A DNA stretch of 64,000 nt from an uncultured Alphaproteobacteria bacterium (GCA_944389595.1 CALXMY010000002.1:57913-121912); one strand, 5' to 3'. Shown: positions 8,711-34,083, numbered from the stretch's first letter. Notes: generated by a model from the sequence alone, not told the origin. Program-made: numbers and translations.

Positions 8711-11671
<2,961 letters not shown>

Positions 11672-11689
11672 TGTAAATGGAAACAAAAT

Positions 11690-12358
11690 ATGGATACAGG
11701 GCGTTTTTCCGATGCAAGTTATTTGTTAAAGGCAAAAGCAAAACTTGCCGGTAAAATTATAAAAATTCCTGGAATTGATGCAGAAAATTTTCCTGTCAGG
11801 AACAGTCTTTTGGGGATTGTTCCACAGGGAAAGATTTTTTTATCTGATGAAGTGGCAGAATTTTTATTCGCTGTTGATGATGCAAGTAAAGAAGTGGGCT
11901 ATGAAATCCCGTTCCTGTTATTTGGTAAAAACCAAGGACAAAATGTTATTATAGATAATTATGTTTCGTCGGGTATAAGCGAAAGGACCGAAGCAAGATT
12001 TTCAGAGCTTAACTCTTATTTGCAAGATTTTATATCAAAATCAAAAAAGGATGGAACAGATGTCGTTGTACATGGGCATTCACATCCAAAAACAGGAAGT
12101 TATTATACGAATTTTTCCTTGGGTGATATGAAGACGTATATGCAGTTTCGTAAAGACAATCAGGTTTTTGATAATAATAATATTTGTTTGATTTCTTGCC
12201 TGGTTGCAGATGGTAATTTTAATTTTCTGTTTTATGATGGAAATGATTATTATAAATTTAACGATGTTTATGAACGAATGCCTTCGGGTGAAATTAAACG
12301 ATTAAAATGTTATCAAAGTCCAGATGTTATTATAAATCGTGGCAGGGAATATAGATAA
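11690..12358 (+). CDS. hypothetical protein with possible JAB/MPN (JAMM-like) metalloprotease motif
   Basis: 222 aa. VVHGHSHPKTGSYYTNFSLGD resembles the JAMM H-x-H-x(n)-S-x-x-D core seen in Rpn11, AMSH and RadC, with a slightly longer spacer. A candidate upstream Glu is in EVGYEIPF. Confidence 0.3.
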   Translation: MDTGRFSDASYLLKAKAKLAGKIIKIPGIDAENFPVRNSLLGIVPQGKIFLSDEVAEFLFAVDDASKEVGYEIPFLLFGKNQGQNVIIDNYVSSGISERTEARFSELNSYLQDFISKSKKDGTDVVVHGHSHPKTGSYYTNFSLGDMKTYMQFRKDNQVFDNNNICLISCLVADGNFNFLFYDGNDYYKFNDVYERMPSGEIKRLKCYQSPDVIINRGREYR

Positions 12359-12361
12359 AAT

Positions 12362-13030
12362 ATGTTTACGGCCGATTGGTTTTTTGATTTAGATTCTAGG
12401 TTGCGCGAAATGGGATTGGATTCCGATGCGCAATCGTTTGATGAAATACGCGAAAATTTATCACATCGGCGTGTGTTGGCCCCGGATGCGTTTGCGGAAA
12501 ATTGCGTATATGTAATTTTGGCGGGTGGATTTTCGCAAAAAACGGCCAAAAAAATTCATGCGCAAATTATGGATTTTTTGCGGGCGCATGGGGCTGATTT
12601 TGATGGTTTGTTTGCGATGTTTCATAATAAAAATAAAATTAATGCCGTGTGCAAAATCTGGGATAATCGTGCACAATTGCGGGATGAATATTATTTGTTG
12701 AATGATACGGATGCACGTGTAAATTTTCTGTCGCGTTTGCCGCATATTGGAAAAATTACTGCAAATCATTTGGCGCGAAACCTGGGTGAAAATGTTGTGA
12801 AATATGATATTTGGATTCAACGCCTGGGCGCGTTGTATGCAGGAAACCCGGCATTGATCGCGAAAATAGATAATAAAAAATTATGCCCGGAAATCAGGTG
12901 CGCATGTGATGCGATGTTTGATGATTTATGTGCACAAACTAAATTGCCACGTGGGTATATTGACGTGGTTTTGTGGAAAAGTTCACAAACGGGTTTAATA
13001 AAGGAATTAAAACATGAATGTGAAAATTGA
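12362..13030 (+). CDS. HhH-GPD-like DNA glycosylase family protein (Nth/MagIII-like, no Fe-S cluster)
   Basis: 222 aa. [12 protein letters not shown] matches the Nth/MutY helix-hairpin-helix LPGVGRKTANVV, and a downstream Asp (VKYDIW) sits at the expected distance. Lies immediately upstream of ung. Confidence 0.35.
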
Positions 13031-13676
13031 ACAATCATGGAAAGATGCGCTGGGCGCGGAATTTGATAAAGATTATTTTATTAAATTAACTGATTTTGTG
13101 CGTGGTGAATATTTGGCGGGGCATGCGGTTTATCCCGCATCGGCAAATATTTTTAATGCGTTTAATTTGTGCCCGTTGGATAATGTAAAGGTTGTGATTA
13201 TTGGTCAAGACCCGTATCATGAACCCGGTCAGGCGCATGGATTGTGTTTTTCGGTTTTGCCGCCGACACCAATTCCACCATCATTGGTTAATATTTACAA
13301 GGAAATTCAAAACGACCTGGGGCGGCCATCAAAAACACATGGTGATTTGACCAGTTGGGCCGAACAGGGGGTGTTATTATTAAATTCAACATTAACCGTT
13401 GCGGCACACAGGGCCGCATCGCACGTTGGGCGTGGGTGGGAACAATTTACTGATGCGGTAATACGCGTGGTTTCATCGCGGCCAAATATTGTTTATATGC
13501 TGTGGGGCAGTTATGCACAACGCAAGGCCGAATTTGTGAATCCGGAAAATAATTTAATTTTAAAAAGTGTGCATCCGTCACCATTATCGGCCAGTCGTGG
13601 ATTTTTTGGTAATCATCACTTTTCGCGTGCAAATGAATATTTAATTGCGCATGGCAAAACGCCAATTGAATGGTAG
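13014..13676 (+). CDS. ung: uracil-DNA glycosylase (family 1)
   Basis: 220 aa. [18 protein letters not shown] water-activating loop and C-terminal HPSPLSA motif. Confidence 0.9.
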
Positions 13677-13695
13677 GATTATTATTCGTAATTAA

Positions 13696-14256
13696 TTAAA
13701 AGTTATAAGTAAACCCGGCACCATAAAATGCATAGGAATGATTTTCTGGGGCAGTGTTGGCATTTGAAAAATGTTGTATAAATATTTCAATTGCCCATTT
13801 TTCGTTTATTTTATATCCGCCAATTAATTTGAATTGCAATAATAATTTTGCGCCCAAACGTTCGTTTTGTTGTGCCTGCAGACCGACACCAACACCGGTT
13901 GAAAAATACCAATTATCACCATGGGCCAGGGCAATATCTTCGGATAAAAATATCATTGGAATTGTATATTGATCCCAATCCCATCCATATTTTCGCCCAA
14001 ACCCCAATGTTTGCCCGATGTTTATTGATTGGCGTGCGGGTATTTTGAAAAAAGTTGTTGGTTGGGAATATTGAATATGCAGCAAATAAAATGGCACCAA
14101 TTGTGTTGGTGGCGGAATTAAAAAGCCACTGTTTACACCCTGGCCAATATTAAAGGCAATTTGATTTTTGTATTCGCCCATAAATGGATTTGTGTCCGCA
14201 TATGCGGCGCATGTGGCGAAAATCAATGTACACAAAGAAATTGCGATTTTTTTCAT
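13696..14256 (-). CDS. small outer-membrane beta-barrel protein, PagL-like lipid A deacylase candidate
   Basis: 186 aa. Signal peptide, alternating aromatic beta-strands, C-terminal ...YNF. HFSNA near the C-terminus resembles the PagL His/Ser catalytic region. Confidence 0.4.
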   Translation of the reverse strand: MKKIAISLCTLIFATCAAYADTNPFMGEYKNQIAFNIGQGVNSGFLIPPPTQLVPFYLLHIQYSQPTTFFKIPARQSINIGQTLGFGRKYGWDWDQYTIPMIFLSEDIALAHGDNWYFSTGVGVGLQAQQNERLGAKLLLQFKLIGGYKINEKWAIEIFIQHFSNANTAPENHSYAFYGAGFTYNF

Positions 14257-14366
14257 ACGCCAAATATATAATATATTATAAATATTTTCAACAAAAATTT
14301 ATTAAAAAATATAATTATTTTATTTGTGAATAAATTCCGTTAACAAATATTGGCGGATTGTTTTGC

Positions 14367-14394
14367 TTGCATTTAATAATTTCTTTGATATAAT
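14367..14394 (+). promoter_or_regulatory. sigma70-like promoter for the tRNA gene (TTGCAT-16-TATAAT)
   Basis: -35 TTGCAT at 14367-14372, 16-nt spacer, -10 TATAAT at 14389-14394, 10 nt before the tRNA 5' end. Confidence 0.5.
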
Positions 14395-14404
14395 GCGGGG
14401 CATT

Positions 14405-14481
14405 GGCGGGATAGCTCAGCTGGTTAGAGCAGTGGAATCATAATCCACGTGTCGGGGGTTCAAGTCCCTCTCCCGCTACCA
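14405..14481 (+). tRNA. tRNA with CAU anticodon (elongator tRNA-Met or tRNA-Ile2/lysidine)
   Basis: Cloverleaf: acceptor GGCGGGA/TCCCGCT, D-arm AGCTCAGCTGGTTAGAGC, anticodon loop AUCAUAA, T-arm GGGGG-TTCAAGT-CCCTC, encoded CCA. Confidence 0.8.
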
Positions 14482-14487
14482 AAAATT

Positions 14488-14510
14488 AAACCGGCGTATG
14501 CCGGTTTTTA
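14488..14510. terminator. bidirectional rho-independent terminator
   Basis: CCGGC-gtat-GCCGG hairpin flanked by A-run and T-run. Serves the tRNA on the plus strand and the ArsR gene on the minus strand. Confidence 0.65.
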
Positions 14511-14516
14511 TTATGA

Positions 14517-15185
14517 TTAAAAATTATTTCCATTTTTATCGAATCGTTTATGTATACATCCAATTGTTGTTTTATGTATTCCGGCGGTTATATCATAATA
14601 CACATGACGGCCATCGCGACGCGATTTTACAAAATCGTCATCAGACAATTTTTTTAAATATTGTGATACCTTGATTTGTGGTATGTTTGTTCCCAATACA
14701 ATTTCGGACACACATGATTCACCACGGTATGTCAGATATTCCAATATGCGCATTTTGTCGTAATGGGCAAATAATTTTATTCTGTTTGCGGCCATGGTGG
14801 TATAATCGGTCGGCAGAATTTCTTTGTACGTGGCGCGCATAAATTTTAATTGATCCGTCATATGGCCAAATAATTTGCGCAGGCATACAAATATACTGGC
14901 CGGGTATTCGCGACATATTTCATAATAAATAAATATGCCCCTGCGGTGTGTTTGTACCAATTCAGCATCGCGCATTTTGCGCAATGATTGCGATACAATC
15001 ATTTGTTCCACGCCAACACCATGTGCAATTGCCGATACCGATGACATGCCATGTACATCCAAAAATTCCAATATGCGTAATCGCAACGGATGCGCAATGT
15101 ATGTTAACCCACGGACCGCGCGTGTCATGATGGAATCAGGTAACATACATTTTATTTTTACATCCGGTAAAACTGTTTGGGGCAT
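14517..15185 (-). CDS. tandem (duplicated) ArsR/SmtB-family winged-helix transcriptional regulator
   Basis: 222 aa with two ArsR-like HTH units (HPLRLRILEFL... and ...MRILEYLTYRGESCVSEI). Confidence 0.5.
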   Translation of the reverse strand: MPQTVLPDVKIKCMLPDSIMTRAVRGLTYIAHPLRLRILEFLDVHGMSSVSAIAHGVGVEQMIVSQSLRKMRDAELVQTHRRGIFIYYEICREYPASIFVCLRKLFGHMTDQLKFMRATYKEILPTDYTTMAANRIKLFAHYDKMRILEYLTYRGESCVSEIVLGTNIPQIKVSQYLKKLSDDDFVKSRRDGRHVYYDITAGIHKTTIGCIHKRFDKNGNNF

Positions 15186-15254
15186 GTGTGTATCCTTTGT
15201 TAAATTAATATAGCATTATTTTTACAAATCGTAAATAAATTATTTGACTTTTTT

Positions 15255-15294
15255 ATATGTATCATAAATAATATGTATTGAAAAAGATATGTAT
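15255..15294. promoter_or_regulatory. three direct ATATGTAT repeats at 16-bp periodicity in the divergent promoter region (candidate operator)
   Basis: Copies at 15255, 15271 and 15287, between the ArsR-like gene and the membrane-protein gene. Confidence 0.4.
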
Positions 15295-15329
15295 TAAATA
15301 TTTAATATAATACAAAGGGGGAATTTTGA

Positions 15330-15842
15330 ATGACATCATCATTATTACGTAAATTTATTGCGTTTATTGCGATGTTAATGCCGGTGGCGGCGGTGGCGAA
15401 TCCGGCGTGTCCCATATGCACAATTGCAATTGGCGCGGGGGTTGGTGTTGCCGAATCGCTGGGGGTGCCGGTGGCAATTGTTGGATTGTGGGCCGGGGCT
15501 TTATTGACCCTTTTGGGGTATTGGATGGCAAAGTTCTGTGATGCACGTGGTTGGAAATTTTGGGGACGAAATGCGTTGTTAATTGGGCTGTCTGTTGCGA
15601 TGATTGGGTTTGCGTATTTGGGTGATATAAATTACACACCCGAATGGATTTTGGGCTTTATATATCTGGACCCGATTTTATTTGGCGCAATTGTTGGGAT
15701 GATTGTATTCATATTAACCGAAAAACTGTATGAATGGATGAAACGTAAAAATGGCGGGCATGCGCATTTTCCGTTTGAACGCGTGGTGTTGCCGGTGGTT
15801 GCGTTGGCGTTATTTAGTTTGCTGTTTTGGTTATGCATGTAA
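15330..15842 (+). CDS. hypothetical polytopic membrane protein with CPxC motif
   Basis: 170 aa, about 4 TM helices, NPACPICT motif near the N-terminus. Confidence 0.5.
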   Translation: MTSSLLRKFIAFIAMLMPVAAVANPACPICTIAIGAGVGVAESLGVPVAIVGLWAGALLTLLGYWMAKFCDARGWKFWGRNALLIGLSVAMIGFAYLGDINYTPEWILGFIYLDPILFGAIVGMIVFILTEKLYEWMKRKNGGHAHFPFERVVLPVVALALFSLLFWLCM

Positions 15843-15862
15843 AATGACAAAAGGGGGCAAGT

Positions 15863-16441
15863 ATGGAAAAAATTAAAAATGTACGCGAATTTGTTGAAAA
15901 ATTAGATGCCGCAAAAAAGGTTAATCCAAAAGATTTATCGTCTGACCAGGATTTAACCATTGGCATCATGAATCTGATATCAATCGAAGAGCATTTGATG
16001 TTTTCAGGTGCCAAAACCGGCAAGCATGAATTTTATGACTTAATCGACGAAGTTCGTGAACAGCGCAAGCAAATGATGCAAAAAATAATCCCATCGTACG
16101 AAGGCGAAGTGTGGTGTATATCAAAGCATTTATTGGCGGCATCCATGCGTTTGTTCGAGGTCGGCACCAAGGCATTGGCCGCCGGTGACAGGGCGGGTGC
16201 ATATGATTTGTTTGATCGGTCGTATGGATTGTATTGCATATTTTGGGGATTAAATATGGGCGGATTGGTTGGTGGCGCGGATGTTAAATGGGTTAAAACA
16301 CGTCCGTCAATATCAAACGTAAAAAAAAACGATAATGTCGCGCCGGTAATTGATGATTTGTCGGATTCAATGGCGGGCGACAGTAAAATCTCGCGTTTGA
16401 AACGTTGGGTAAAAAACGCGGTGAATTGCTGTATTGAATAA
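15863..16441 (+). CDS. hypothetical protein
   Basis: 192-aa ORF with an RBS-like AAGGGGG upstream. No recognisable domain. Confidence 0.45.
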   Translation: MEKIKNVREFVEKLDAAKKVNPKDLSSDQDLTIGIMNLISIEEHLMFSGAKTGKHEFYDLIDEVREQRKQMMQKIIPSYEGEVWCISKHLLAASMRLFEVGTKALAAGDRAGAYDLFDRSYGLYCIFWGLNMGGLVGGADVKWVKTRPSISNVKKNDNVAPVIDDLSDSMAGDSKISRLKRWVKNAVNCCIE

Positions 16442-16460
16442 TAAAAAATTCTGTTGAATA

Positions 16461-16487
16461 CACCCCGCATGCGCGGGGTGCTTTTTA
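16461..16487 (+). terminator. rho-independent terminator
   Basis: CACCCCGC-atgc-GCGGGGTG hairpin followed by CTTTTT. Confidence 0.7.
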
Positions 16488-16530
16488 TTCTTGATTTTTC
16501 GGGGCGGTTCCTTATAATGGCAAATACAGT

Positions 16531-16604
16531 GCCCTAATAGTCTAGTGGTAAAACACGTCCTTGGTAAGGACGAGTCGCAAGTCCGATTCTTGCTTAGGGC
16601 ACCA
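16531..16604 (+). tRNA. tRNA-Thr (GGU anticodon) with a non-canonical T-loop
   Basis: Acceptor GCCCTAA/TTAGGGC. Perfect anticodon arm CGTCC-UUGGUAA-GGACG. T-arm GCAAG-TCCGATT-CTTGC carries C at position 55 instead of U, and there is a D-stem mismatch. Encoded CCA. A TTGATT-16-TATAAT promoter lies at 16491-16518. Confidence 0.6.
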
Positions 16605-18138
16605 CTAAAGAATTCTCCCATGAAAAACTGTTAAATAGCCCGAAAATCGGGGATAAATTGATAGTCCCAAATTTTTGTTCTTTGTTGTAGGAAATTTTGT
16701 CCCTAAAGCACAAATTTAGGACTACTTGTTTGATGTTGTAATCTCCATTTTTCCATGCTTCAATGGGGCGTGAAATAAAATCAGATACATATCCGAAAGC
16801 TTCATCAAATGGCATTAATTCAGGGGTAAAGTTATCAACTTCTGATTGTAGTGATAATCTCTCTGATTCCAGCGCATTAATTTTTGCGTTAAGTGCCTTT
16901 TTCATAACATCGTTTGCGCTGATATATGCGTCAGTGATTAATGATTGTTCTTGTTCTATTGCAGATATGCGTTTCTTTTTTTCTTCGTTATTCGCACATG
17001 CAGCTTTATTGCGGTTTGAATATTCCCTTGTTGCTAATGCTCGTGCCAGCGCAATCAGATTCTCTTTTGGGGCAATTTTATTCAAAACCTCTGTTTCAAA
17101 TTCTTTATGCAAAATTTGCGGTGATACGTTGGCAAGTTTCTTTTTAGGGCAGTTCTTGTTTTGACACTGATAGTATGGATATTTGCCGCTTTTCGTCATA
17201 CTAGCAGTTAACGGGCGACCACACTCGGGACAGGTTATAAATCCCTTAAGTGGGAAGCGTTCATCATGTTTGTTGTATTTCTTGTGTCTAAGGCGGTTTC
17301 GTCCATGTAGGCGGTCTTGGATTAAATCAAATGTCGCAGTATCTATTAATGGTTCTATGTGCCATTTTTGGACTGGAATATCATATTTAGGATATGCGAA
17401 TATACCCGTATATTTGCGGTCGGTTAAGATGCGTTTCACAAAATCAAATATGTTTTTGGGGGTATGGAGACCGGCTAAGTGCATTCTTTCTGTTAAAAAG
17501 TTTGCTACATCGGTCTGAGATACTAATTTTGCGCTGGCGAATTGTTCTAGGGCTTCTTGTATTATCCCTGCCAATGGTTCATGTCGTTTTAATTCTTTGC
17601 GTGCGCCAATTTTTACGAATTGGTATCCCTTTGGTGGTTGCGTAATCCAATACCCATTTCTGGCGGCTTCACGCATACCGGCAATAGTTCTTTCTCTGTT
17701 CTGGTCTGCGAATAACTCTGCCTGTGCCGCTTCTATTGTTGCCATGAATTTCCCGACAGGGCTTGTTTCTAAAATTCCTTTGCATGTTGCCAATCTGTGC
17801 CCGCATCGTTCCATAGATTTGCGTAATTTAATGAAATCTCCTGCGTTGCGTGCTAATCGGCTTATGTCATAAAATAATACCAGACGAGGTTCTTTTATTT
17901 TTGATAGATAATCTATCATTTCTGCAAGTTGATCACGTCCTTCGGTTTTTGTTCCTGTTTTCGCTGCATCTATATAAAATTTTTCGATTTTGCAGTTATT
18001 CCGTTGCGCCCAAGATTCGCATGCCCATTGTTGTGTATCTAGGCCGTTGCCGTTATTGACCTGTTTATCGGTTGACACCCTATAATATGCAACCGCCTTT
18101 GTGATTTTATGATTTTCCATTGTGCAACACCTTGTCAA
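16594..18138 (-). CDS. large serine recombinase (phage-type serine integrase)
   Basis: N-terminal catalytic motif AYYRVSTDKQ, a recombinase domain and a C-terminal Cys zinc ribbon (CPECGRPL...CQNKNCP). The stop codon overlaps the last 11 nt of tRNA-Thr. The likely true start is MENHK at 18120. Confidence 0.85.
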   Translation of the reverse strand: MTRCCTMENHKITKAVAYYRVSTDKQVNNGNGLDTQQWACESWAQRNNCKIEKFYIDAAKTGTKTEGRDQLAEMIDYLSKIKEPRLVLFYDISRLARNAGDFIKLRKSMERCGHRLATCKGILETSPVGKFMATIEAAQAELFADQNRERTIAGMREAARNGYWITQPPKGYQFVKIGARKELKRHEPLAGIIQEALEQFASAKLVSQTDVANFLTERMHLAGLHTPKNIFDFVKRILTDRKYTGIFAYPKYDIPVQKWHIEPLIDTATFDLIQDRLHGRNRLRHKKYNKHDERFPLKGFITCPECGRPLTASMTKSGKYPYYQCQNKNCPKKKLANVSPQILHKEFETEVLNKIAPKENLIALARALATREYSNRNKAACANNEEKKKRISAIEQEQSLITDAYISANDVMKKALNAKINALESERLSLQSEVDNFTPELMPFDEAFGYVSDFISRPIEAWKNGDYNIKQVVLNLCFRDKISYNKEQKFGTINLSPIFGLFNSFSWENSLVVP

Positions 18139-18364
18139 AGATTGTGTTTATAATAATGATTAACTGGTCTCTATATTGCTCTATCTGTTTATCTGTTAAG
18201 TTTATATTGCCCAGATATTTACGACATTCTGCCACCGACATCGTCGCCATCGCGCCCACCAAAAGGTCTGCGTTTTGGCCTCGGTTTGTGCGTAAGCGAA
18301 AACAATGTTAAACAAATCCTTTATTACATCGGTTCGTGCGATATGTCGTAAAAAGGATTGATTT

Positions 18365-19105
18365 TTATATTTCATTCCATACCTCTGTCAGATTCAAAAT
18401 GAAATTTTTGTTAATCATTTTTTCTTGTGCCATTAATATAATATCGTCAATGCGTGCAATATTACACCGCCCGGCCATATCCATATACAGGTATATATCG
18501 TCTTTATTTTTTGTCTTGTCAAAACAAGTGTATGCAATTTCAAGCAGACTAAAATCTGTGCCTGGTAATTTTACCCGCAGGGATTCTTTCGTTTTTTGTA
18601 ATTTACGAACAGATACCCCAAAATCGCGACAGGCTTTTAATATATGAATATAAGCAATATCAATTTTTGAAAATGTATACCATTTTTCAATATTGCCGCG
18701 CTCGTCAATCAACAATTCTTGTTTGTGTGTCCAATCGTTTAAGCAGCGACTGCTGATAGGAATATCTTGTTTATGAAATTTTTTATCACGCAGGTCATTT
18801 AAGTATCGGGCTTCTGATAAGTTGTCAGAGCAGAACATAAACACATTCATAGATTCATTTGTTAAAACAACGTCGGCCAATCGGTAATCTTTTATCAAAA
18901 CTTGTGCCGGATATTCTTTATATGGGCGGCTGGATATTAGGGTGATGGCTTGTGTTAATTCCGTTGCCAGGTCGCGCAAATCCTGTCCCTTGAATTCAAT
19001 ATTGTGCTTTTTGCTTTTTATCCTCAGAATACCCGATTTTGCGTCAAAGTCTGTACCAGTTGGGTATTCCTTGGAATCGTAGATATGTTCTTGTTTTTTA
19101 TTCAT
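18365..19105 (-). CDS. hypothetical island protein
   Basis: 246-aa ORF. A possible HTH-like segment (SKIDIAYIHILKACRDFGVSVRKL). Preceded by a 20-bp perfect palindrome. Confidence 0.4.
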   Translation of the reverse strand: MNKKQEHIYDSKEYPTGTDFDAKSGILRIKSKKHNIEFKGQDLRDLATELTQAITLISSRPYKEYPAQVLIKDYRLADVVLTNESMNVFMFCSDNLSEARYLNDLRDKKFHKQDIPISSRCLNDWTHKQELLIDERGNIEKWYTFSKIDIAYIHILKACRDFGVSVRKLQKTKESLRVKLPGTDFSLLEIAYTCFDKTKNKDDIYLYMDMAGRCNIARIDDIILMAQEKMINKNFILNLTEVWNEI

Positions 19106-19118
19106 AGCACAACCTTAA

Positions 19119-19138
19119 ATATTACATATATGTAATAT
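19119..19138. promoter_or_regulatory. 20-bp perfect palindrome ATATTACATATATGTAATAT (candidate operator)
   Basis: Exact inverted repeat 14 bp upstream of the start codon of the 246-aa gene. Confidence 0.4.
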
Positions 19139-19374
19139 ATCAAATAAAAAGCCGTTGTAAAGCAATTTTTTTATAAAAAAATCAGCAAATACAATAATGT
19201 ATGCTTAAAATAGCATACATTGTATACCGTAAATTTAATTCGCGACACTTATTTTGATAAAAATCAGCGCTATGCCACGGAATACAAGGCGTTGCGCGGA
19301 AAATTCAAAAAGTCGTTAATATCGCGCATTTTTTATAATGCCCGGAAATCCGCCATTTTATGTCATAGTGTCGT

Positions 19375-19800
19375 CTAATGTGTTTTTATTTCCAGTTTAG
19401 GTCGCTCTTTGTCGGGGTTTTCTGAAAAATCTTTCGCACATTGAATTATTGCTATGTCTACTAAATGCTCGCGTGTTTCTGCAATATTAAATACATTTAC
19501 AATGTTGTGTTTAATCGCTTTATAGACTTGTTTTTCTCTCATAACGGTGTGCATATTGTCGACTACGCATTCACAGAGTTGGTGTGTCAATATGATATTG
19601 TCTAGTGTTGTGGTGCCTTTGGGAACATATTTATCAACGCAGACCGTTCTAACCTTTTCGTCATTCTTAAAAACATCTCTAAAATATTTGTTAACATACT
19701 TATTTCTGGATTCACACATTGCTAGATAATAGGTAATGCAAGATATGAGTGTTAAAGATATCAAACCAAGTGCAATATGAACTAGTATTTTTGTTTTCAT
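19375..19800 (-). CDS. hypothetical secreted/lipoprotein-like island protein
   Basis: 141 aa with an N-terminal signal sequence containing LISC. Confidence 0.4.
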   Translation of the reverse strand: MKTKILVHIALGLISLTLISCITYYLAMCESRNKYVNKYFRDVFKNDEKVRTVCVDKYVPKGTTTLDNIILTHQLCECVVDNMHTVMREKQVYKAIKHNIVNVFNIAETREHLVDIAIIQCAKDFSENPDKERPKLEIKTH

Positions 19801-19844
19801 AATTTATCTCTTTTTTTGGTTCGACAACCTTGTCGATTCAAAAT

Positions 19845-20231
19845 TTATTGACGCTTTTTATCAAAAATTGCCCAAATTATCGCAAACAGCCAAAGTAATA
19901 TCCCCGCCGGTCCCCATACAGAAAAGAATGTCAGCCAGTAAATACCCGTGCTATGTTTTCGATTAAGAAATGTCGCCAGACATACCGGAATCATACCCAT
20001 TGCAAATGCAATCAGTGCTGACAACAGAAAAACAAGACCGGAATCGTCAACCTGTAAATATGCATTCGACCACCCTAGCGCACCGGCGATAATTGCCCCT
20101 ATGCTAACCAACCACCACGCGCTTGCTGGAATTTTGGGTGTGTGCGGTATATTTGATTTTTCAGATTGTGTATTATTTATGCTAACTTTTTCAGACATTT
20201 TCTTACCCCTTTGATATAAAAAGACCGCCAA
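19845..20231 (-). CDS. hypothetical small membrane protein
   Basis: 128 aa with 3 predicted TM helices. Confidence 0.4.
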   Translation of the reverse strand: MAVFLYQRGKKMSEKVSINNTQSEKSNIPHTPKIPASAWWLVSIGAIIAGALGWSNAYLQVDDSGLVFLLSALIAFAMGMIPVCLATFLNRKHSTGIYWLTFFSVWGPAGILLWLFAIIWAIFDKKRQ

Positions 20232-20531
20232 AGGAATGACGGTCGGGTATTTTCAAAATCATAATTGCAATGACCCTGTGGATTTCGGCGAACCTGTTAT
20301 ATAGCCACAGACACCCGACCAAAAGGTCAGGCAAAACAGTGTAAAAAACACCATTATGCTGTCAAAAACGGATAACGATGTTTTCACACCGTGCAATTAT
20401 GGGTTTTGAACGACCCCGAACCCATATCCCTATGGATTCTTAAGCAAGTATTGCTACCGCCTCAATGTAAAATTATATTTTATAAAATATATTTATGCAA
20501 ACATAATTGTATATTTTATTGTTGGGAGTTA

Positions 20532-20981
20532 TTAAATTGTATCAAGTCTTTCTTTAAGATTGGCAATATCGTCTATAATTTTATTACATTTATTTATGTC
20601 TTGACGCCTAGAAGAGGTTTCAAAATTTTTGCCTGTTGTAAGTTCATATATATCATTAAATTGATTTCTAAAATCATAAATTTTTTTTCTAATAGAACTG
20701 AACTTATTGTGAAGATAATTCAAATTTGTTGCAATGTCTTTTTTGCATGATTTAATATTATTTTCTAGCATTAATTGATGTCCTGAAGGAAAAGATATTT
20801 TTCCCCAATACTCGCAACTAAGGGCTCTAAATTCGTCTAAAAGCCCTCTAATTAGAGATAGTCTATTTTCTTTTGCTCCCAATTTTAGTTGGTGCTTTGT
20901 TATAAAAAATGAAACTATTGCAATGCAAAGTTGTGCTATTATTCCAACAACTGTAATCCAATTATCTGTGGTCATGACCAT
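20532..20981 (-). CDS. small membrane-anchored coiled-coil protein (third gene of GHKL/STAS cassette)
   Basis: 149 aa. N-terminal TM helix VVGIIAQLCIAIVSFFI and a charged helical remainder. Lies 4 nt downstream of the STAS-like gene. The region is very AT-rich. Confidence 0.4.
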   Translation of the reverse strand: MVMTTDNWITVVGIIAQLCIAIVSFFITKHQLKLGAKENRLSLIRGLLDEFRALSCEYWGKISFPSGHQLMLENNIKSCKKDIATNLNYLHNKFSSIRKKIYDFRNQFNDIYELTTGKNFETSSRRQDINKCNKIIDDIANLKERLDTI

Positions 20982-20985
20982 TAAA

Positions 20986-21312
20986 TTATTCCTCTACAGA
21001 TTTTTTTATTATATGCCATATTGACGGTTCTAATGTTATGTCGTCATTACAAATAAAGCTTAATTTGCTTTTAATTGTTTCAAATGAAATATTATTTTCT
21101 CTTATAAGACCGCCAAAGGCTTCGTCCCAAAAAGATGCTCCAACACCATCTAAACCATCTAATATAATATTAATATGCTCTACTTTTTTATCATTAAATG
21201 CAGGAAGAATGAATTCTTCTCTGAAGCGTTGTCCAGAAAACTTACCATAACTTCTATACCTTCCAGCTGGTGCTTTATGAAAGTCTTTTGCGATATTAAT
21301 AGTTTTTATCAT
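20986..21312 (-). CDS. small STAS-like protein (DUF4325-like, anti-sigma-antagonist fold candidate)
   Basis: 108 aa. EHINIILDGLDGVGASFWDEAFGGL matches the strand-loop-helix signature of STAS-like/DUF4325 domains. Lies 9 nt downstream of the GHKL gene. Confidence 0.45.
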   Translation of the reverse strand: MIKTINIAKDFHKAPAGRYRSYGKFSGQRFREEFILPAFNDKKVEHINIILDGLDGVGASFWDEAFGGLIRENNISFETIKSKLSFICNDDITLEPSIWHIIKKSVEE

Positions 21313-21321
21313 TTTTTATCC

Positions 21322-22371
21322 TTATATGTTTACCTGCCACTCTATTAGAGTTCCATTTATGCTATGGATTTTGTCGTTTAACTGTTCTTGAATTCCATTT
21401 CCTCTGATATATTCACCTTTATCACTGATTATTCTTACAAATGCACTTTTTTTCAAAGATGTAACATAGTCGATTATTAGAGGCAAGCCATTTCCTCGGT
21501 TCTTTTGATTGGTTTGTGAAATTCCAGCATGTGTAGCCTCTCTAATTTTTGCCGCATCAGACATTCCTAATAGTTTTGTCAATAAGTTTGGCCTTGTTTT
21601 TGGTAATGATTTTGGAATGCCTATGCCTTGGTCAAAAAACATCACATTAAGAGTAGATGTGTTTCGGTTAATTGATGCAGACATCCACCACATTTTTTGT
21701 TTTAATGGGCTACTCATGATAAAATTATCAGGATAACCGTGACTTAACACGTTATCCATAGCTTCGTCAAGAGCGATTTTTAGTTTTTTCTTATTTGGCA
21801 ATACGTCAATAAGGTTACTCAAAGTATCACGAAAAGTTAGGACGTCATCGGGATTAACCAAATTTCCAGACATAAATTTTAAAAATATAACATCCTTTTT
21901 TCTTGGTTCTTTTCCAAATTCTGCAGGAATGTTTTGTATATTTAATAAATCAAACATCCCCATATCGTATAACAAGTATTTTATTTCTTCTTTCCAATTT
22001 TTGAAATCTACAACGTGCAATTTACCGTTTTTGCCTCTTATCCTACGTAATCTATCTAACTCCGAAGTAAAAACTAGCGCACAACCAGGGGTTATAAAAT
22101 CAATACCAGTAAAGTCTATTTTTAAAGAGCACAATGGATCATCTGCACATTGTCTAATATCATTTAGAAAAATTCTGGTTTCTTTATTTGTCAAATCAAG
22201 GCAGGTCGGGGCTTTTAATTTTTTTCTATACGGTGAATGTTTTGCAAGAAATTGACCTTTTTTACGAATTTGTGTTTTTCTTCTGTATAATTTTGCTCTT
22301 TTGCGCAAAAGAAACTGGCGATGTTTCCAGCGTCTTTCTTTGTTATTATTGTTATATTTTTTTATTACCAT
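21322..22371 (-). CDS. GHKL-family ATPase / RsbW-SpoIIAB-like serine kinase with N-terminal STAS-like domain
   Basis: 349 aa. Bergerat-fold motifs: N-box EAMDNVLSHG, G1 FFDQGIGIP (DxGxG) and G2 RGNGLPLI. The N-terminal ~100 aa include IDFTGIDFITPGCALVF, which resembles the STAS beta-strand/loop. Confidence 0.6.
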   Translation of the reverse strand: MVIKKYNNNNKERRWKHRQFLLRKRAKLYRRKTQIRKKGQFLAKHSPYRKKLKAPTCLDLTNKETRIFLNDIRQCADDPLCSLKIDFTGIDFITPGCALVFTSELDRLRRIRGKNGKLHVVDFKNWKEEIKYLLYDMGMFDLLNIQNIPAEFGKEPRKKDVIFLKFMSGNLVNPDDVLTFRDTLSNLIDVLPNKKKLKIALDEAMDNVLSHGYPDNFIMSSPLKQKMWWMSASINRNTSTLNVMFFDQGIGIPKSLPKTRPNLLTKLLGMSDAAKIREATHAGISQTNQKNRGNGLPLIIDYVTSLKKSAFVRIISDKGEYIRGNGIQEQLNDKIHSINGTLIEWQVNI

Positions 22372-22708
22372 TTTGTACTACATTGCATATATAGTATATA
22401 AATAGCTAAATATCAATATAAACAATGAAGAATACATAATGTGTATGTATTCCAATTCTATTTCGGTGTTTTATTGTTAAAATTATTGTTTTTTATAAAT
22501 CCGCCGTTTGCAACTTTACGATAATTCAAAATGCCACTTTCCTTAATAATCCTTGCATTTCGCATTATTTCATTATAAAATCTGTTCCAGTTGTCCCAAC
22601 TTTTATGTAGTAGGGGCACCAGAGTATTTATGAAGTCTTTTCCCGTTTTTAATTGTATTTTTACTATGCTTTTTTTATAATTAATCTGTAAATTACAGGG
22701 GTTATTTT

Positions 22709-23296
22709 ATGGCGGTGGAAGTAAATATCGGCGTTTTTGGTGCCAACGAGGGATTACAAGTCAGTCCTTGTTTTCAAAATAAAACTTATAGAAATACATT
22801 GGTGAATTTATATAACCCGAATGTTACGCATGGCGGGAAACAAATGTTTGTGTTCAAAACCCCGGAAAACGATGTTGTATACGCCATGACCATTGGCAGC
22901 GGCGGCCAAGACAAGTTGTTTTACGGTTTTAATGGCCGTCCGGGTTCTTTTGTTGGGGTTGCATTGGCGATAAAAAATGCGCAATTCAAAGATGTGAATC
23001 AGGCCATGGATATATTGGATTGGGCATATGAAAATAAAATCAAAGGCAATATCATAGAAAGCACAGGCGAAAATAAAAAGTTTGTCATAGACGGATACGA
23101 ATTTTCGGGCGACAAAATACAAAGTTTTATGGATTCTGCCATTGGGGACAGAATAACCCATGTTTGCCAACGTGGCGATTGGGGTACTTTTAAATATAAT
23201 GCCGATACGGATTCCAGGGTGGCAGTATACCGATTTCCATCGGAAAAATCTGATTTAGAAAACGCGATAAAAAAAAATCAAGGAAATGGGCTTTGA
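22709..23296 (+). CDS. hypothetical protein
   Basis: 195-aa ORF with host-like GC content. No recognisable domain. Confidence 0.4.
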   Translation: MAVEVNIGVFGANEGLQVSPCFQNKTYRNTLVNLYNPNVTHGGKQMFVFKTPENDVVYAMTIGSGGQDKLFYGFNGRPGSFVGVALAIKNAQFKDVNQAMDILDWAYENKIKGNIIESTGENKKFVIDGYEFSGDKIQSFMDSAIGDRITHVCQRGDWGTFKYNADTDSRVAVYRFPSEKSDLENAIKKNQGNGL

Positions 23297-23451
23297 CCCA
23301 CATGAAGTGGCCGAATATATTTTGAAAAAACAAAAAGATTTTTAATACTTGCAATTGTGATAATTGCATTATAGAATCCGATTCAGATGGTTCAAAATAT
23401 TATGTTTTGAACATCAGGGAAGATTTATCTTCTGTTCTTTTGTTTTTTTGT

Positions 23452-23578: not shown

Positions 23579-25072
23579 ATGAAAAAATTTTTACCCATTA
23601 TTTTAGTTTTAACATTGGCCGCATGTGGCGGTGGTTCTGGTGGTGGTAATGTTGGCAATGGCGGTAATGCCGGGGTTCCGGGTGGCGGCGAAATATTTAA
23701 TCCGGATGATTTTGTTAAACCCGAATATAACGGCAATGTGTCACATGATGTTGTGGACAGTAATGCCGCTGTTTTAACAATGCATTCCAGTGTTTTTGAT
23801 GAAACGGCCAGAACACAGTATTTAATAGATGCATTTGGTGAAGAATATTATAATGCGTTAATTGCCGAATTGTCTGGCAAGGTAAATGATGCTGTGGTAG
23901 ACGCGGTGGAAAATCGCGTCGGGTCTGCACGTGATAACGGTGGTAAAAATTTTTGTAAATCGGAACGCGATTGTAATCAAATGATATTTGACCAAATGCG
24001 GGAAGTTTTGGACAATTTAGATAATCTGGATGATATGAATAATAAAGATATTCGTAATGCATTAATTGCCGCCGGATTTGGAAAGGAAATTTCAGGGCAT
24101 TGGGATGATATCAAAGATTATGTGAAAAATCATATGAATATTGATGATATTAAAAACCAGGGCGAAGAAATATACAATACACCGGGCAAGGGCAGTGGTG
24201 AATTCAATTTGAAAAATACAGATTTCAAGGCAATGTTAACCACGATACAAAATAATGTTGCTGATATCATGACATTACAGATTGATAATGATGGGCGTGT
24301 TATTGGTGTCGTGTTTAAAGATGTGGGATCTGGGTCAAGCAGAGAAAGTCCGGCAATATTATATTCGGGATTAAAGCGCAACGATGATACAAATCGTTTT
24401 GATTTTTCAGATCCAGATGGCGAAATGCCAACATCGGGCGAAATGGAAATGATATCATATGCCCAGGATTTAGGATTAAGATATTCTGATTTTGGCGTTT
24501 TGGTTGGTGCAGAAAATGCAAAAATTACGGTGACTGATGAAGATGGTAATGTCAGTGAACGTGATTTGTCGGGATATAAATTGCCATTTGCCGGTGGATA
24601 TGATGTAAAGCGTATTGATGATAAAAAACAAATTGCATCAAATGTGACTTTCTATGGTTTTGCAAATGGTACGGTTGAACCCGCAAATGCCAGTGGTGCC
24701 AAAGCGTTACCAATTGAAAGCAAAAATGCAACATTAACATTTAATGCCACCAATCGCGAAGAGCATTTAACCGCGAATTTTGATAATTGGTATAAATTAG
24801 ATGTCATAAAAAATGGTATGGGCCAAGTCATATGGGTAAATACCGATGATTGTGGGCGGCGTATTCCAACGGAATATGTGGTTAAAGATACACCATTGAC
24901 CGATGGTGTACAAAATGAATCCGTGTATTTTAATACCGAATTTTATGGCGATGACAATATCCCGGCCGAGGCCGTTGCATTATTTCAATATCAACAAAAG
25001 GTTATGGATACGCCCAAGGAAGGCGGCGGGAATTTGAATATATTCCTGGGGTTTGGGGGACGAACCAAATAA
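23579..25072 (+). CDS. hypothetical surface/periplasmic lipoprotein with Gly-rich linker
   Basis: 497 aa. Signal peptide and lipobox LAACGG, immediately followed by GGSGGGNVGNGGNAGVPGGG (a flexible linker as in neisserial-type surface lipoproteins). Confidence 0.55.
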   Translation: MKKFLPIILVLTLAACGGGSGGGNVGNGGNAGVPGGGEIFNPDDFVKPEYNGNVSHDVVDSNAAVLTMHSSVFDETARTQYLIDAFGEEYYNALIAELSGKVNDAVVDAVENRVGSARDNGGKNFCKSERDCNQMIFDQMREVLDNLDNLDDMNNKDIRNALIAAGFGKEISGHWDDIKDYVKNHMNIDDIKNQGEEIYNTPGKGSGEFNLKNTDFKAMLTTIQNNVADIMTLQIDNDGRVIGVVFKDVGSGSSRESPAILYSGLKRNDDTNRFDFSDPDGEMPTSGEMEMISYAQDLGLRYSDFGVLVGAENAKITVTDEDGNVSERDLSGYKLPFAGGYDVKRIDDKKQIASNVTFYGFANGTVEPANASGAKALPIESKNATLTFNATNREEHLTANFDNWYKLDVIKNGMGQVIWVNTDDCGRRIPTEYVVKDTPLTDGVQNESVYFNTEFYGDDNIPAEAVALFQYQQKVMDTPKEGGGNLNIFLGFGGRTK

Positions 25073-25083
25073 ATTAAAATGAT

Positions 25084-25114
25084 AATTCCGCCCATTTGGA
25101 CGGAATTATTTTTT
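25084..25114 (+). terminator. rho-independent terminator
   Basis: AATTCCGCCC-attt-GGACGGAATT hairpin followed by ATTTTTTAT. Confidence 0.6.
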
Positions 25115-25302
25115 ATATTACTTGCATTTTATATATTTGCGGTATAAAATTTTTGACTGGTAATATTTAAGGGTGCGGGAACGATGATGTGACTGACAAC
25201 CACGGAGTTCGCAAATCCCAATTCAAAGTGACAAATCAGGGTGGCACCGCGCAAAATAAAATTGCGCCCCTGAAACATTAAAAACGCGGGTGCCGTTTCC
25301 AA

Positions 25303-32304: not shown

Positions 32305-34083
32305 TTATTTTTCCGCACGTTTTAACAGACTTTGCACCGCCAATGGAAAATCAGTGCTGTTTGCCAGATATGATCCGCTGACAATCAAATCCGCCCCGGC
32401 GGCCCAACATTTTTGTGCGGTATCCGCATTTATTCCGCCGTCGACAGATATTAAATATTTTAATCCATATTTTTTTCGTGTTGCGGCCAATACCGAAATT
32501 TTATGCAGACATTTTGAATCAAATTGTTGTCCCGCGGCACCCGGTGTGACCGCCATAATCATTATTTCATCAATTTCGCGCAAAATTGGTTTTAATATTT
32601 CGATTGATGAATCGGGGTTTAATGCCACACCGGCACGTCGGCCCGCACCACGGATTAATCGCAATGCATTGCGAACACCGGATGTATTTGTTGAAACAAT
32701 AATTGTATTTGCCCCGGCGGCAACGGCATCAGCCGCCCATACATCGGGACTTTCGGTCATCAGATGAACATGTAAATGTGCGCGCGTGTGTGCGCGGATG
32801 TATTTTAATTCTGCGATGCTGCCACGTATGTTTTCAACATATAATCCATCCATTATATCAACATGTATCATTGATATTCCGCCCGCGCGAAACATTGAAT
32901 ATGTAATTGGACTTTTCATATCAAAACACAGCGTGCTGGGCAAAACAGGAATAAAACTGATTTGTTTTTTGGGATGCGGATGAAAAACCGCAGTTATACG
33001 ATTGTATATATTGCGTATGCGTGCATGTCGCGCGGTGTATGCATTGCGATGTGTTAATTCGGCATCCCATATATATGTGGACAGTGCCTGAATTGATGCG
33101 GTTGCATGTGCGTTGTGCACGGGAATGCCAAACAGATTTTCAATAAAATCAGATATAAATTCGATTTCCGCCCCACCACCGGAAATAATAATTTTATTGG
33201 GTGTTCGATGTTTAAATGGGGTGGTACAGGCATCCTTTATCTGGGCACACAGGTCAACCATATTTGGAACAATTATATTATTAACATCGGCACGTGAAAA
33301 ATCATATGCGGTATCAGCCGGGGTAAAACGATCCATTTCACGCGGCATCATGGCGGAAACATTACGCTTTATTCGTTCGGCATCATCAAAATTTATGTTT
33401 AATTTTTCCGATATGTCATGCGTTATATCCGTGCCACCAAATGGTATCTTTTGAAAAAAGACCGGGCCATTATCCAACCACATTGAAATACTGGTAAACC
33501 CGGCACCAAAATCTATGTATAATTCCGCGCCTTTTTTGGTATGCATCATTGCGTTTTGTAAAAAATGTGGGTCATAAAAAGAATATGGCTGAATATGCGC
33601 CGCGTGTAATTTTGTTGTTAATTCACTGATTGCATCATTTGAATAAAATATTACGCCGAATATGGCCGTTAATCCGAAATCAGTGTATCCAATTGGGCTG
33701 TATAATTTTTTTACATTTGGTGTTTCATATCGCAACGGAATTATGTGCATTGGAAAAAATTCATCCGGCGGTGTTATTTGGGAAATCATTGAACTGATAT
33801 CAGATTGTGTAATTTTATGTTCGCCCCGCCAATTTTTGGATTTTGGATTTATTTTAAATATCGCGGGGCCAAAATTTCCGGTAATATATGCGTCATCAAA
33901 ATGGTCGCCAATTTGGCGTTCCAATTCATCAATAACAGATTTTATGGCGAAAACAGTATCAAAACTGTCCACTGTGTGCACGGATGATTTTATAATGTGG
34001 CCGGCACGCACACGGTGCGCAATGCCGCGAACGCCACTGGTGCCAATATCAAGACATAAAAAAGATGAATCAGATAAATTCAT
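32305..34083 (-). CDS. ftsA-rpe: in-frame fusion: cell-division protein FtsA (N-terminal ~345 aa) + ribulose-phosphate 3-epimerase (C-terminal ~225 aa)
   Basis: N-terminus LCLDIGTSGVRGIA, KIPFGGTDITHDISEKL...AERIKRNV and IIISGGGAEIEFISDFIENLFGIPV match the FtsA actin fold. The C-terminus carries Rpe metal and catalytic motifs HVDIMDG, HLMT, MAVTPGAAGQQF and ISVDGGIN. The 592-aa reading frame has no stop between the two parts. Confidence 0.7.
   Translation of the reverse strand: MNLSDSSFLCLDIGTSGVRGIAHRVRAGHIIKSSVHTVDSFDTVFAIKSVIDELERQIGDHFDDAYITGNFGPAIFKINPKSKNWRGEHKITQSDISSMISQITPPDEFFPMHIIPLRYETPNVKKLYSPIGYTDFGLTAIFGVIFYSNDAISELTTKLHAAHIQPYSFYDPHFLQNAMMHTKKGAELYIDFGAGFTSISMWLDNGPVFFQKIPFGGTDITHDISEKLNINFDDAERIKRNVSAMMPREMDRFTPADTAYDFSRADVNNIIVPNMVDLCAQIKDACTTPFKHRTPNKIIISGGGAEIEFISDFIENLFGIPVHNAHATASIQALSTYIWDAELTHRNAYTARHARIRNIYNRITAVFHPHPKKQISFIPVLPSTLCFDMKSPITYSMFRAGGISMIHVDIMDGLYVENIRGSIAELKYIRAHTRAHLHVHLMTESPDVWAADAVAAGANTIIVSTNTSGVRNALRLIRGAGRRAGVALNPDSSIEILKPILREIDEIMIMAVTPGAAGQQFDSKCLHKISVLAATRKKYGLKYLISVDGGINADTAQKCWAAGADLIVSGSYLANSTDFPLAVQSLLKRAEK

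Follow-up and report, generated by a model that had tools for sequence, protein, structure and literature searches.

Why does the gene of a large serine recombinase (LSR) end inside the tRNA gene beside which it lies? The question is raised by a stretch of 64,000 nt from an uncultured Alphaproteobacteria bacterium (GCA_944389595.1 CALXMY010000002.1:57913-121912), hereafter the window, in whose positions all coordinates are given. A preliminary description of the window had placed an integrated island at tRNA-Thr(GGU), bounded by an LSR with its stop codon in the last 11 nt of the tRNA. Comparison with contigs of the same species indicates that the segment 16605-22621 is almost certainly an integrative element, put into the extreme 3' end of tRNA-Thr(GGU) by the LSR. 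The best explanation of the whole, which we consider highly probable on the sequences compared here, is an LSR-inserted element whose integrase gene spans the attachment site of its circular form (attP) and is split by integration. Our claim is limited to the architecture of this gene; a regulatory consequence is put forward as a hypothesis.

Results

Occupied and empty sites at tRNA-Thr

The integration target, tRNA-Thr(GGU/GGT), was located at 16531-16604 on the plus strand by ARAGORN and Rfam in agreement. Contigs covering the locus were retrieved from public assemblies via the flanking 192-aa protein f192 (15863-16441), and the locus was found in three states. Six contigs (L001, L003, L004, L005, L006 and L009) are empty, with the order f192, tRNA-Thr, f195 homologue, f497 and aspS. 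L007, L008, L010 and further contigs carry the window island between tRNA-Thr and the f195 homologue. In L002, a 559-aa LSR and different cargo occupy the same tRNA.

Comparison with the empty-site contigs set the boundaries of the insert at 16605-22621 (6,017 bp). With this segment removed, the window was 96.7-99.1% identical to the six empty contigs over 2.5-3 kb. The tRNA-Thr was identical in all six (74/74 nt at occupied versus empty sites), the junction was identical over 20 nt to either side in five of the six, and the f192 protein was the same in empty and occupied contigs. The insertion is precise and polymorphic, six contigs being empty and at least ten occupied; the integrase lies at one edge of the insert, and the target gene is reconstituted. 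The island proposed at tRNA-Thr in the preliminary description thus stands. Contigs of the empty, attB type also occur in the same sample series as the island. A larger island including f195 and f497 was rejected, as both genes occur at empty sites. The GC content of the element is 0.350 (0.32-0.34 over 19-23 kb) against 0.39-0.40 in the flanks.

The last 11 nt of tRNA-Thr are TTAGGGCACCA, and a degenerate copy, TAGGGGCACCA, is present at 22611-22621, as had been reported. This copy had been offered as a candidate distal attachment site. The empty-site contigs identify its final 8 bp (22614-22621) as the true attR, whereas the repeat as evidence on its own was rejected: seven copies of the 8-mer GGGCACCA are present in the window where 2.05 would be expected, so that the repeat alone is uninformative and the identity of the att sites is proved by the empty-site comparison. 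The attL core, GGGCACCA (16597-16604, plus strand), comprises the final bases of the acceptor stem, the discriminator A and CCA. The attR core, again GGGCACCA (22614-22621, plus strand), has the P arm of the island on its left and the original tRNA trailer (GAGTATTTATG...) on its right. Nothing beyond these 8 bp is common to attL and attR, and the tRNA sequence is unaltered because the element brings the identical 8 bp.

The attB site consists of TTAGGGCACCA followed directly by GAGTATTT. Read directly, the attB junction is ...CTTGCTTAGGGCACCA joined to GAGTATTTATGAAG..., the attL junction ...CTTGCTTAGGGCACCA joined to CTAAAGAATTCTCCC..., and the attR junction ...TTATGTAGTAGGGGCACCA joined to GAGTATTTATGAAG.... 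For the rebuilt circle, an attP junction GAATTCTTTAGTGGTGCCCCTACTACAT is predicted, in the context ...GGGAGAATTCTTTAGTGGTGCCCCTACTACATAAAAGTTGGG.... The shared core is 8 bp in the window type, and the crossover must fall inside it. The corresponding cores are GGGCACCAGA in L002 and GCACCAGA in L037; if its position is conserved across the family, the crossover would lie within GCACCA. With the CA of GGG-CA-CCA as their centre, two inverted repeats occur in the window-type attP, TAGGGG/CCACTA and CAGTT/AACTG. Of 32 positions, 15-16 are symmetric against approximately 8 expected, and an adjoining centre scores alike; CA is put forward as a candidate central dinucleotide only.

The large serine recombinase

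In its integrated, truncated form the LSR is encoded on the minus strand at 16594-18120 and comprises 508 aa. The 514 aa given in the preliminary description hold for the open reading frame (ORF) extended to an upstream TTG (16594-18138, minus strand) and not for the start in use, as homologues and gene callers begin at the ATG at 18120. For the same reason an exact look-up of the 514-aa form returned no record, and the 508-aa form was found on record. The stop codon does lie within the last 11 nt of the tRNA, as had been claimed: TAA is the reverse complement of 16594-16596, and the final residues of the protein are likewise antisense tRNA.

The catalytic motif and zinc ribbon noted at the outset were both recovered. 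The protein matched PF00239 Resolvase (2.1e-30, aa 15-163), with the motif YYRVSTDKQ and the nucleophile S16 in YYRVS, PF07508 Recombinase (25.1 bits, cut-off 21.1), PF13408 Zn_ribbon_recom (3.7e-10) and the PHROG integrase family phrog_95 (6e-75). In an alignment of 25 LSR sequences, Y12, R14, V15, S16, Q20, R62, R88 and R91 were invariant, as were the zinc-ribbon residues C297, C300, C319 and C324. An AlphaFold2 (AF2) model of the circular-form protein had a mean predicted local distance difference test (pLDDT) of 83.5. It places a high-confidence catalytic domain at the N-terminus, a long helix E at residues 121-154, the recombinase domain after helix E, a zinc ribbon with a coiled coil at 353-429 (helices 353-399 and 404-429, pLDDT 80-94), and a small C-terminal subdomain up to approximately residue 500. 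The top Foldseek matches of the model were full-length serine integrases, including Bxb1 and PhiC31. By this model the protein has the complete build of a large serine integrase, with catalytic, recombinase, zinc-ribbon and coiled-coil parts. No close relatives were found in phage and plasmid collections, where the best match was at most 29% identical.

An integrase gene that probably runs through the att site

Up to a conserved ...SPIF near residue 500, the window LSR shares 39% identity with that of L002; beyond it the two diverge, yet both end in ...VP followed by a stop because both read into antisense tRNA. This is the rule in the family. The C-termini of nearly all 36 homologues (down to 26% identity) are antisense tRNA 3' ends, such as ...S(L/Y)(V/M/L)VP-stop, ...VPVVGLEPTT(L/Y)-stop, MAERVGFEPT... 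and VVDRAGLEPATF..., and two end in unassigned sequence. The homologues have no stop of their own before the att core, and the overlap was confirmed in the DNA for tRNA-Thr (GGT and TGT), tRNA-Ser and tRNA-Ala.

The continuation of the gene was sought by joining the right end of each island to its left end. In the circles rebuilt from the window, L029-L032, L034A, L035 and L038, the LSR ORF was extended in frame by 35-59 codons. An in-frame tail was also present in L037 and L002, the far ends of which were located with a tail profile. In the window, the detached 3' segment of the gene is predicted at 22458-22621 on the minus strand, and the ORF of the circle continues ...VVP-LLHKSWDNWNRFYNEIMRNARIIKESGILNYRKVANGGFIKNNNFNNKTPK to a stop. 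The tail follows the consensus SW(D/E)..W..(F/V)Y.EI(I/M)..A.IIKESGI....RV(A/T)NGGF in at least six lineages, down to 39% LSR identity. The distant loci L041 and L042 were fetched only in part, their far ends lying beyond 10 kb, and the statement of tail conservation thus covers LSR identities of approximately 39% and above. The reading frame is maintained although the linker from SPIF to the core varies from approximately 15 to approximately 75 aa.

Large serine recombinase att sites typically extend approximately 25 bp per arm. The conserved block of the tail lies approximately 32-130 nt out from the core and reaches well past such an arm. Pairwise differences between tails are concentrated at third codon positions; for the window against L034A they are distributed 5/7/17 over the three positions, with 11 synonymous against 9 non-synonymous codon changes. 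These comparisons make it likely that attP lies inside the integrase gene, approximately 50 codons upstream of its true stop. The overlap of stop codon and tRNA would then not be incidental, because the real 3' end of the LSR gene sits at the opposite end of the island. In the AF2 model, a linker (501-514, pLDDT below 50) leads to a tail helix (514-534), and the terminal residues (539-559) are disordered; the tail looks like a tethered helix.

A different account is that the LSR is complete at 508 aa, that its read-through into the tRNA is incidental, and that the far-end segment is either a gene for a micro-protein of approximately 50 aa or conserved DNA, comprising an attP arm and an inward promoter. 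The LSR without its tail indeed retains all recognised domains, and the database copies of the tail are all short separate ORFs of 45-118 aa. In the 20 inspected of 21 matches to the tail motif, the motif runs from the att core onwards and is preceded by unrelated, flank-derived residues. Additionally, a sigma-70-like site (TTGGGA-16-TATAAT, 22599-22572, minus strand) lies inside the tail and points into the cargo operon. Left unexplained, however, are the family members that have no stop of their own before the core and the frame kept in six or more lineages despite changes in linker length. An independent tail gene would, moreover, have to start within the att core and draw its ribosome-binding site from unrelated host flanks. 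The third-position bias indicates coding constraint in exactly the LSR frame, approximately 130 nt out from the core. We therefore judge a complete LSR unlikely and prefer the attP-spanning gene.

Three matches of the tail searches were set aside. P0101, the sole long one, does not resemble a recombinase, and P0070 and P0078, which have LSR-like N-termini, turned out to be attR ORFs entered from the chromosomal flank.

Related islands and their spread

One genome per species was scanned with a 12-sequence LSR alignment as query. The LSR was found in metagenome-assembled genomes titled uncultured Alphaproteobacteria or 'Candidatus Enterousia', including one from horse faeces; the host is an uncultured gut alphaproteobacterium, 'Candidatus Enterousia'. 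Of 11 loci, nine have the LSR gene converging on a tRNA-Thr (eight GGT, one TGT) and overlapping it. In four of these the LSR is 97-98% identical to that of the window, and in the three with comparable flanks f192 is 77-83% and aspS 89-92% identical. A near-identical LSR beside diverged neighbours indicates recent horizontal spread. Far ends located in L029-L032, L034 and L035 give island sizes of 5.8-7.8 kb. Across islands, only the LSR and a homologue of its neighbour p246 recur, and the remaining cargo differs.

Other arrangements extend this picture. L002 carries a different island at this tRNA-Thr (10732-20579, approximately 9.8 kb), with an LSR of 559 aa that shares 39% identity with that of the window and, at the far end, an in-frame tail of the same kind. 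Its cargo includes an f497 paralogue (49% identity) as well as a TPR_Slam/SlipAM protein, a small Resolvase and a KAP NTPase. L034 (5537-11611) contains a tandem array, in which the inner element's LSR gene continues past the core into a second element, at its right end, and so gains a divergent tail (LVPQMISQEDHMTRFYNLVMDM...). The resulting ORF has 537 aa, and no tRNA was found within the next 10 kb. Distant LSRs (approximately 28% identity) overlap tRNA-Ser(GCT) by 50 nt in L041 (10001-11627) and tRNA-Ala(GGC) by 65 nt in L042 (10001-11574). The tRNA-Ser element carries a TraG/TrwB-type coupling protein, which suggests that integrases of this clade are used by conjugative or mobilisable elements as well.

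Several results weigh against an active element with a split integrase gene. No attP junction was found in the 15 contigs that reach the right end of the island, all of which are attR. Two degenerate patterns for the attP junction and P arm likewise retrieved no attP from JGI metagenomes and IMG/VR, yielding one further attR (L040). Among the matches of word-indexed and exhaustive HMMER searches (1.84 billion representatives) there was no protein with both LSR body and tail, and full-length forms may sit hidden in clusters represented by a short form; a homologue search with the circular-form protein returned integrated-length relatives only. Confidence in the modelled tail helix is low (pLDDT 50-67). 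Both the promoter-like site and the P arm of attP overlap the first part of the tail, whose conservation may partly be at the level of DNA. The dyad symmetry around CA is clear in the window type only and weak in other lineages. The AF2 model of p246, the MerR-like neighbour of the LSR described below, is poor (pLDDT 54.6). Finally, since the element has no genes for replication, packaging or conjugation, its transfer between cells would have to rely on something else.

The failure to detect a circular form would also suit a fixed, immobile remnant, in which the pattern arose by ancient insertion followed by flank exchange or deletions and not by ongoing LSR activity. A decayed relative exists. 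L045 (2528-7640) is a hybrid at the same site, in which an N-terminally truncated LSR, the last 186 aa of an L002-type protein, adjoins the tRNA. It has a window-type right end with the mutated core TGGTGTC, and its cargo comprises a KAP NTPase and an autotransporter. Yet the LSR ORF of the window is intact, with the catalytic and zinc-binding residues all present, and the empty sites are precise to the single base. Five other contigs, from several samples, carry the island with 100% identity over 6,017 bp, whereas their flanks show 0-4% difference (85% identity for one short left flank), and near-identical LSRs occur in species with neighbours only 77-83% identical. We consider an immobile remnant very improbable.

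Proposed behaviour of the putative split gene

If the integrase gene spans attP, the free circle would encode a protein of approximately 558 aa, ending in a flexible linker and a conserved helix (SWDNWNRFYNEIMRNARIIKESGI...RVANGGF). Integration would part approximately 50 tail codons from the rest of the gene by 6 kb, place them at the island's far end and leave a 508-aa ORF that stops at the TAA supplied by the antisense tRNA acceptor stem. Excision would give the tail codons back to the integrase gene. The two isoforms may not be alike in activity, stability or directionality. Recombination of attP with attB would be favoured by the full-length enzyme of the circle, and the truncated chromosomal enzyme, perhaps together with the adjacent p246, would be quiescent or act in excision.

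More broadly, we propose only tentatively a clade of tRNA-targeting LSRs with attP in their own gene, in which the two isoforms report the state of the element: the full-length form would drive integration, and the tail-less form would differ in directionality, activity or stability. A directionality switch would then be built into the structure of the gene and could replace or complement a separate directionality factor.

Cargo of the island

Seven ORFs span 16594-22371, every one on the minus strand, in keeping with the co-orientation noted earlier. Upstream of the LSR lies p246 (18365-19105), with a MerR-type helix-turn-helix at approximately aa 118-172. In related elements, a homologue with 30-60% identity invariably sits immediately upstream of the LSR. 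Eight of 14 members of the family match PF13411 (MerR_1; best 2.5e-5), and the homologue from an independent island carries the same precomputed Pfam match. A profile search of p246 against the PDB gave nothing meaningful. Because of its constant position adjoining the LSR, p246 is a candidate regulator or directionality factor.

The next genes are p141 (19375-19800), which has a signal- or lipobox-like N-terminus (LISC) and no family match; p128 (19845-20231; 117 aa from ATG), with three hydrophobic segments and no significant family match; and p149 (20532-20981), with an N-terminal transmembrane segment and a coiled-coil-like C-terminal part. They are followed by p108 (20986-21312), a DUF4325 (STAS-like) protein matching phrog_5816 (2e-12), and p349 (21322-22371), which matches phrog_3364 (1e-40). 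Both PHROGs are families of phage proteins without assigned function, and the literature on DUF4325 is uninformative on function. The membrane or secretion bias ascribed to these genes in the preliminary description applies to three of six (p141, p117/128 and p149); p246, p108 and p349 have no such segments. From these matches the cargo appears to consist of a phage-associated pair, one protein weakly GHKL-like and the other STAS-like with DUF4325, and three small membrane proteins.

Such a cargo raises the possibility of a phage satellite or mobilisable islet chiefly for anti-phage defence or superinfection exclusion. Its effectors would be the GHKL-like/STAS-like pair together with the membrane proteins, and for transfer it would depend on a helper phage or conjugative element. 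The idea is compatible with the proposed integration mechanism. It draws on the two phage families, on the variation of cargo among islands that share the LSR and MerR-like module, and on the KAP NTPase, PIN and methyltransferase genes of sister islands. Against it, PADLOC anti-phage defence models had no match among nine proteins, those of the island included. Pfam, PHROGs and NCBIfam searches of the seven ORFs revealed no capsid, terminase, primase, replication, relaxase or type IV secretion genes, nor was any oriT-like feature found. The GHKL (HATPase_c_2) match of p349, at 17.8 bits, is below the Pfam threshold of 27.4. A role in defence is conceivable but seems to us doubtful.

Neighbouring sequences

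The window contains three copies, with 72-74% identity, of a promoter-like motif of 39 nt, TTGCAT-N17-TATAAAAT (22543-22581, 23339-23377 and 25112-25150). The copy in the right end of the island is on the plus strand and points out to f195; of the other two, one precedes f497 and one aspS. Between the island and aspS are two genes (22709-23296 and 23579-25072) that have no family match and vary in length between strains (195/211/223 and 444/491/497 aa, respectively); neither was detected in the sister species.

The region of tRNA-Met (14405-14481), between 13696-14256 and 14517-15185, is a second variable spot in the conspecific contigs. Its inserts include two small ORFs in L003, a DpnII-type restriction-modification system in L006 and, in L004, a glycosyltransferase/UDP-sugar cluster of approximately 7.5 kb adjoining a 121-aa Resolvase fragment. 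Further away, a 592-aa ORF (32305-34083, minus strand) combines an FtsA/PilM-like actin fold with a ribulose-phosphate 3-epimerase domain and is a single gene in several contigs.

Discussion

Large serine integrases are leading tools for the insertion of large DNA, and what decides whether they integrate or excise is a subject of active structural work. A C-terminus removed by integration and restored by excision would be a natural, testable case of state-dependent control, the serine counterpart of IntP/IntX of the phage Mx8. The exact empty sites, together with the several lineages and the several tRNAs, supply solid comparative evidence for tRNA-targeting serine integrases, a target class found rare in a 2020 survey. 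The target consists of the last bases of the tRNA, including CCA, and, if widely conserved, might offer a landing site for bacteria in which engineering is difficult. There is also a consequence for annotation: these integrases would be recorded with a false C-terminus from antisense tRNA, and their presumed real 3' ends are listed as orphan 'hypothetical proteins' of approximately 50 aa.

How does the island compare with known systems? The preliminary description held serine integrases at tRNA genes to be less common than tyrosine integrases, and the TIGER survey agrees in the figures drawn on here, with serine-integrase islands at t(m)RNA genes making up 14/297 (4.9%) against 44.5% for tyrosine integrases (PMC7192596). 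Its authors stated in 2020 that, to their knowledge, such islands had been unreported before and that experimental proof was required (PMC7192596). Among tycheposon-type elements, 27 of 937 are reported to use an LSR (Hackl et al., bioRxiv 10.1101/2020.12.28.424599). Tycheposons and the TIGER islands resemble the present element as small cargo islands at tRNA genes, but were observed at the level of surveys. Many tycheposons carry replication genes, of which there are none here, and a split integrase is not described in the portions of those reports on which we draw.

The closest precedent, as far as the published account drawn on here extends, is that of the Dehalococcoides ssrA islands and their integrase DsiB. 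These are likewise small cargo islands, with a serine integrase of approximately 540 aa at the attL edge, a tRNA-like 3' end as target and tandem arrays. The DsiB gene always overlaps attL and lacks a stop of its own, and its authors speculated that it is complete only on the circle or beside another island (McMurdie et al. 2011, PMC3146451). The target there is ssrA (tmRNA) in Chloroflexi, whereas here it is tRNA-Thr in Alphaproteobacteria. Six genes make up the DsiB module, one of them for a second, small serine recombinase, where the present element has only the MerR-like partner. In the parts of that report consulted, the missing 3' part is speculative and no conserved tail is described; here the tail has been identified and is conserved in frame. 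DsiB is likened to the window LSR on its published description.

PhiC31, Bxb1 and A118/LI have the same domain architecture as the window LSR and, apparently, its short att identity; PhiC31, Bxb1 and the like are 15-20% identical to it in structural alignments. Their attP lies outside the gene, and their targets are mostly protein-coding. Directionality factors are known for them, whereas the window LSR has a candidate only, p246.

An integrase gene spanning attP has a counterpart in IntP/IntX of the Myxococcus phage Mx8, which integrates into a tRNA gene. Its Int, however, is a tyrosine recombinase, unrelated in family and mechanism, and Mx8 is a complete phage. As described in later accounts, attP lies within the integrase coding sequence, and integration gives the gene a new 3' end and an altered enzyme (Tojo 1996; Magrini 1999; via PMC6070905, PMC4383910). 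The SSV-type 'suicidal' integrases, tyrosine recombinases of archaeal viruses and plasmids, are also encoded by genes split on integration, but there the split leaves two inactive pseudogene halves (PMC8371274); here approximately 9% of the protein would be removed, with every recognised domain intact.

In kind, then, the island is an ordinary LSR-borne one. What it adds to these systems, well supported by the sequence comparisons, is a putative serine-family integrase whose gene spans attP, with a conserved and detachable tail, in a clade that targets tRNA genes.

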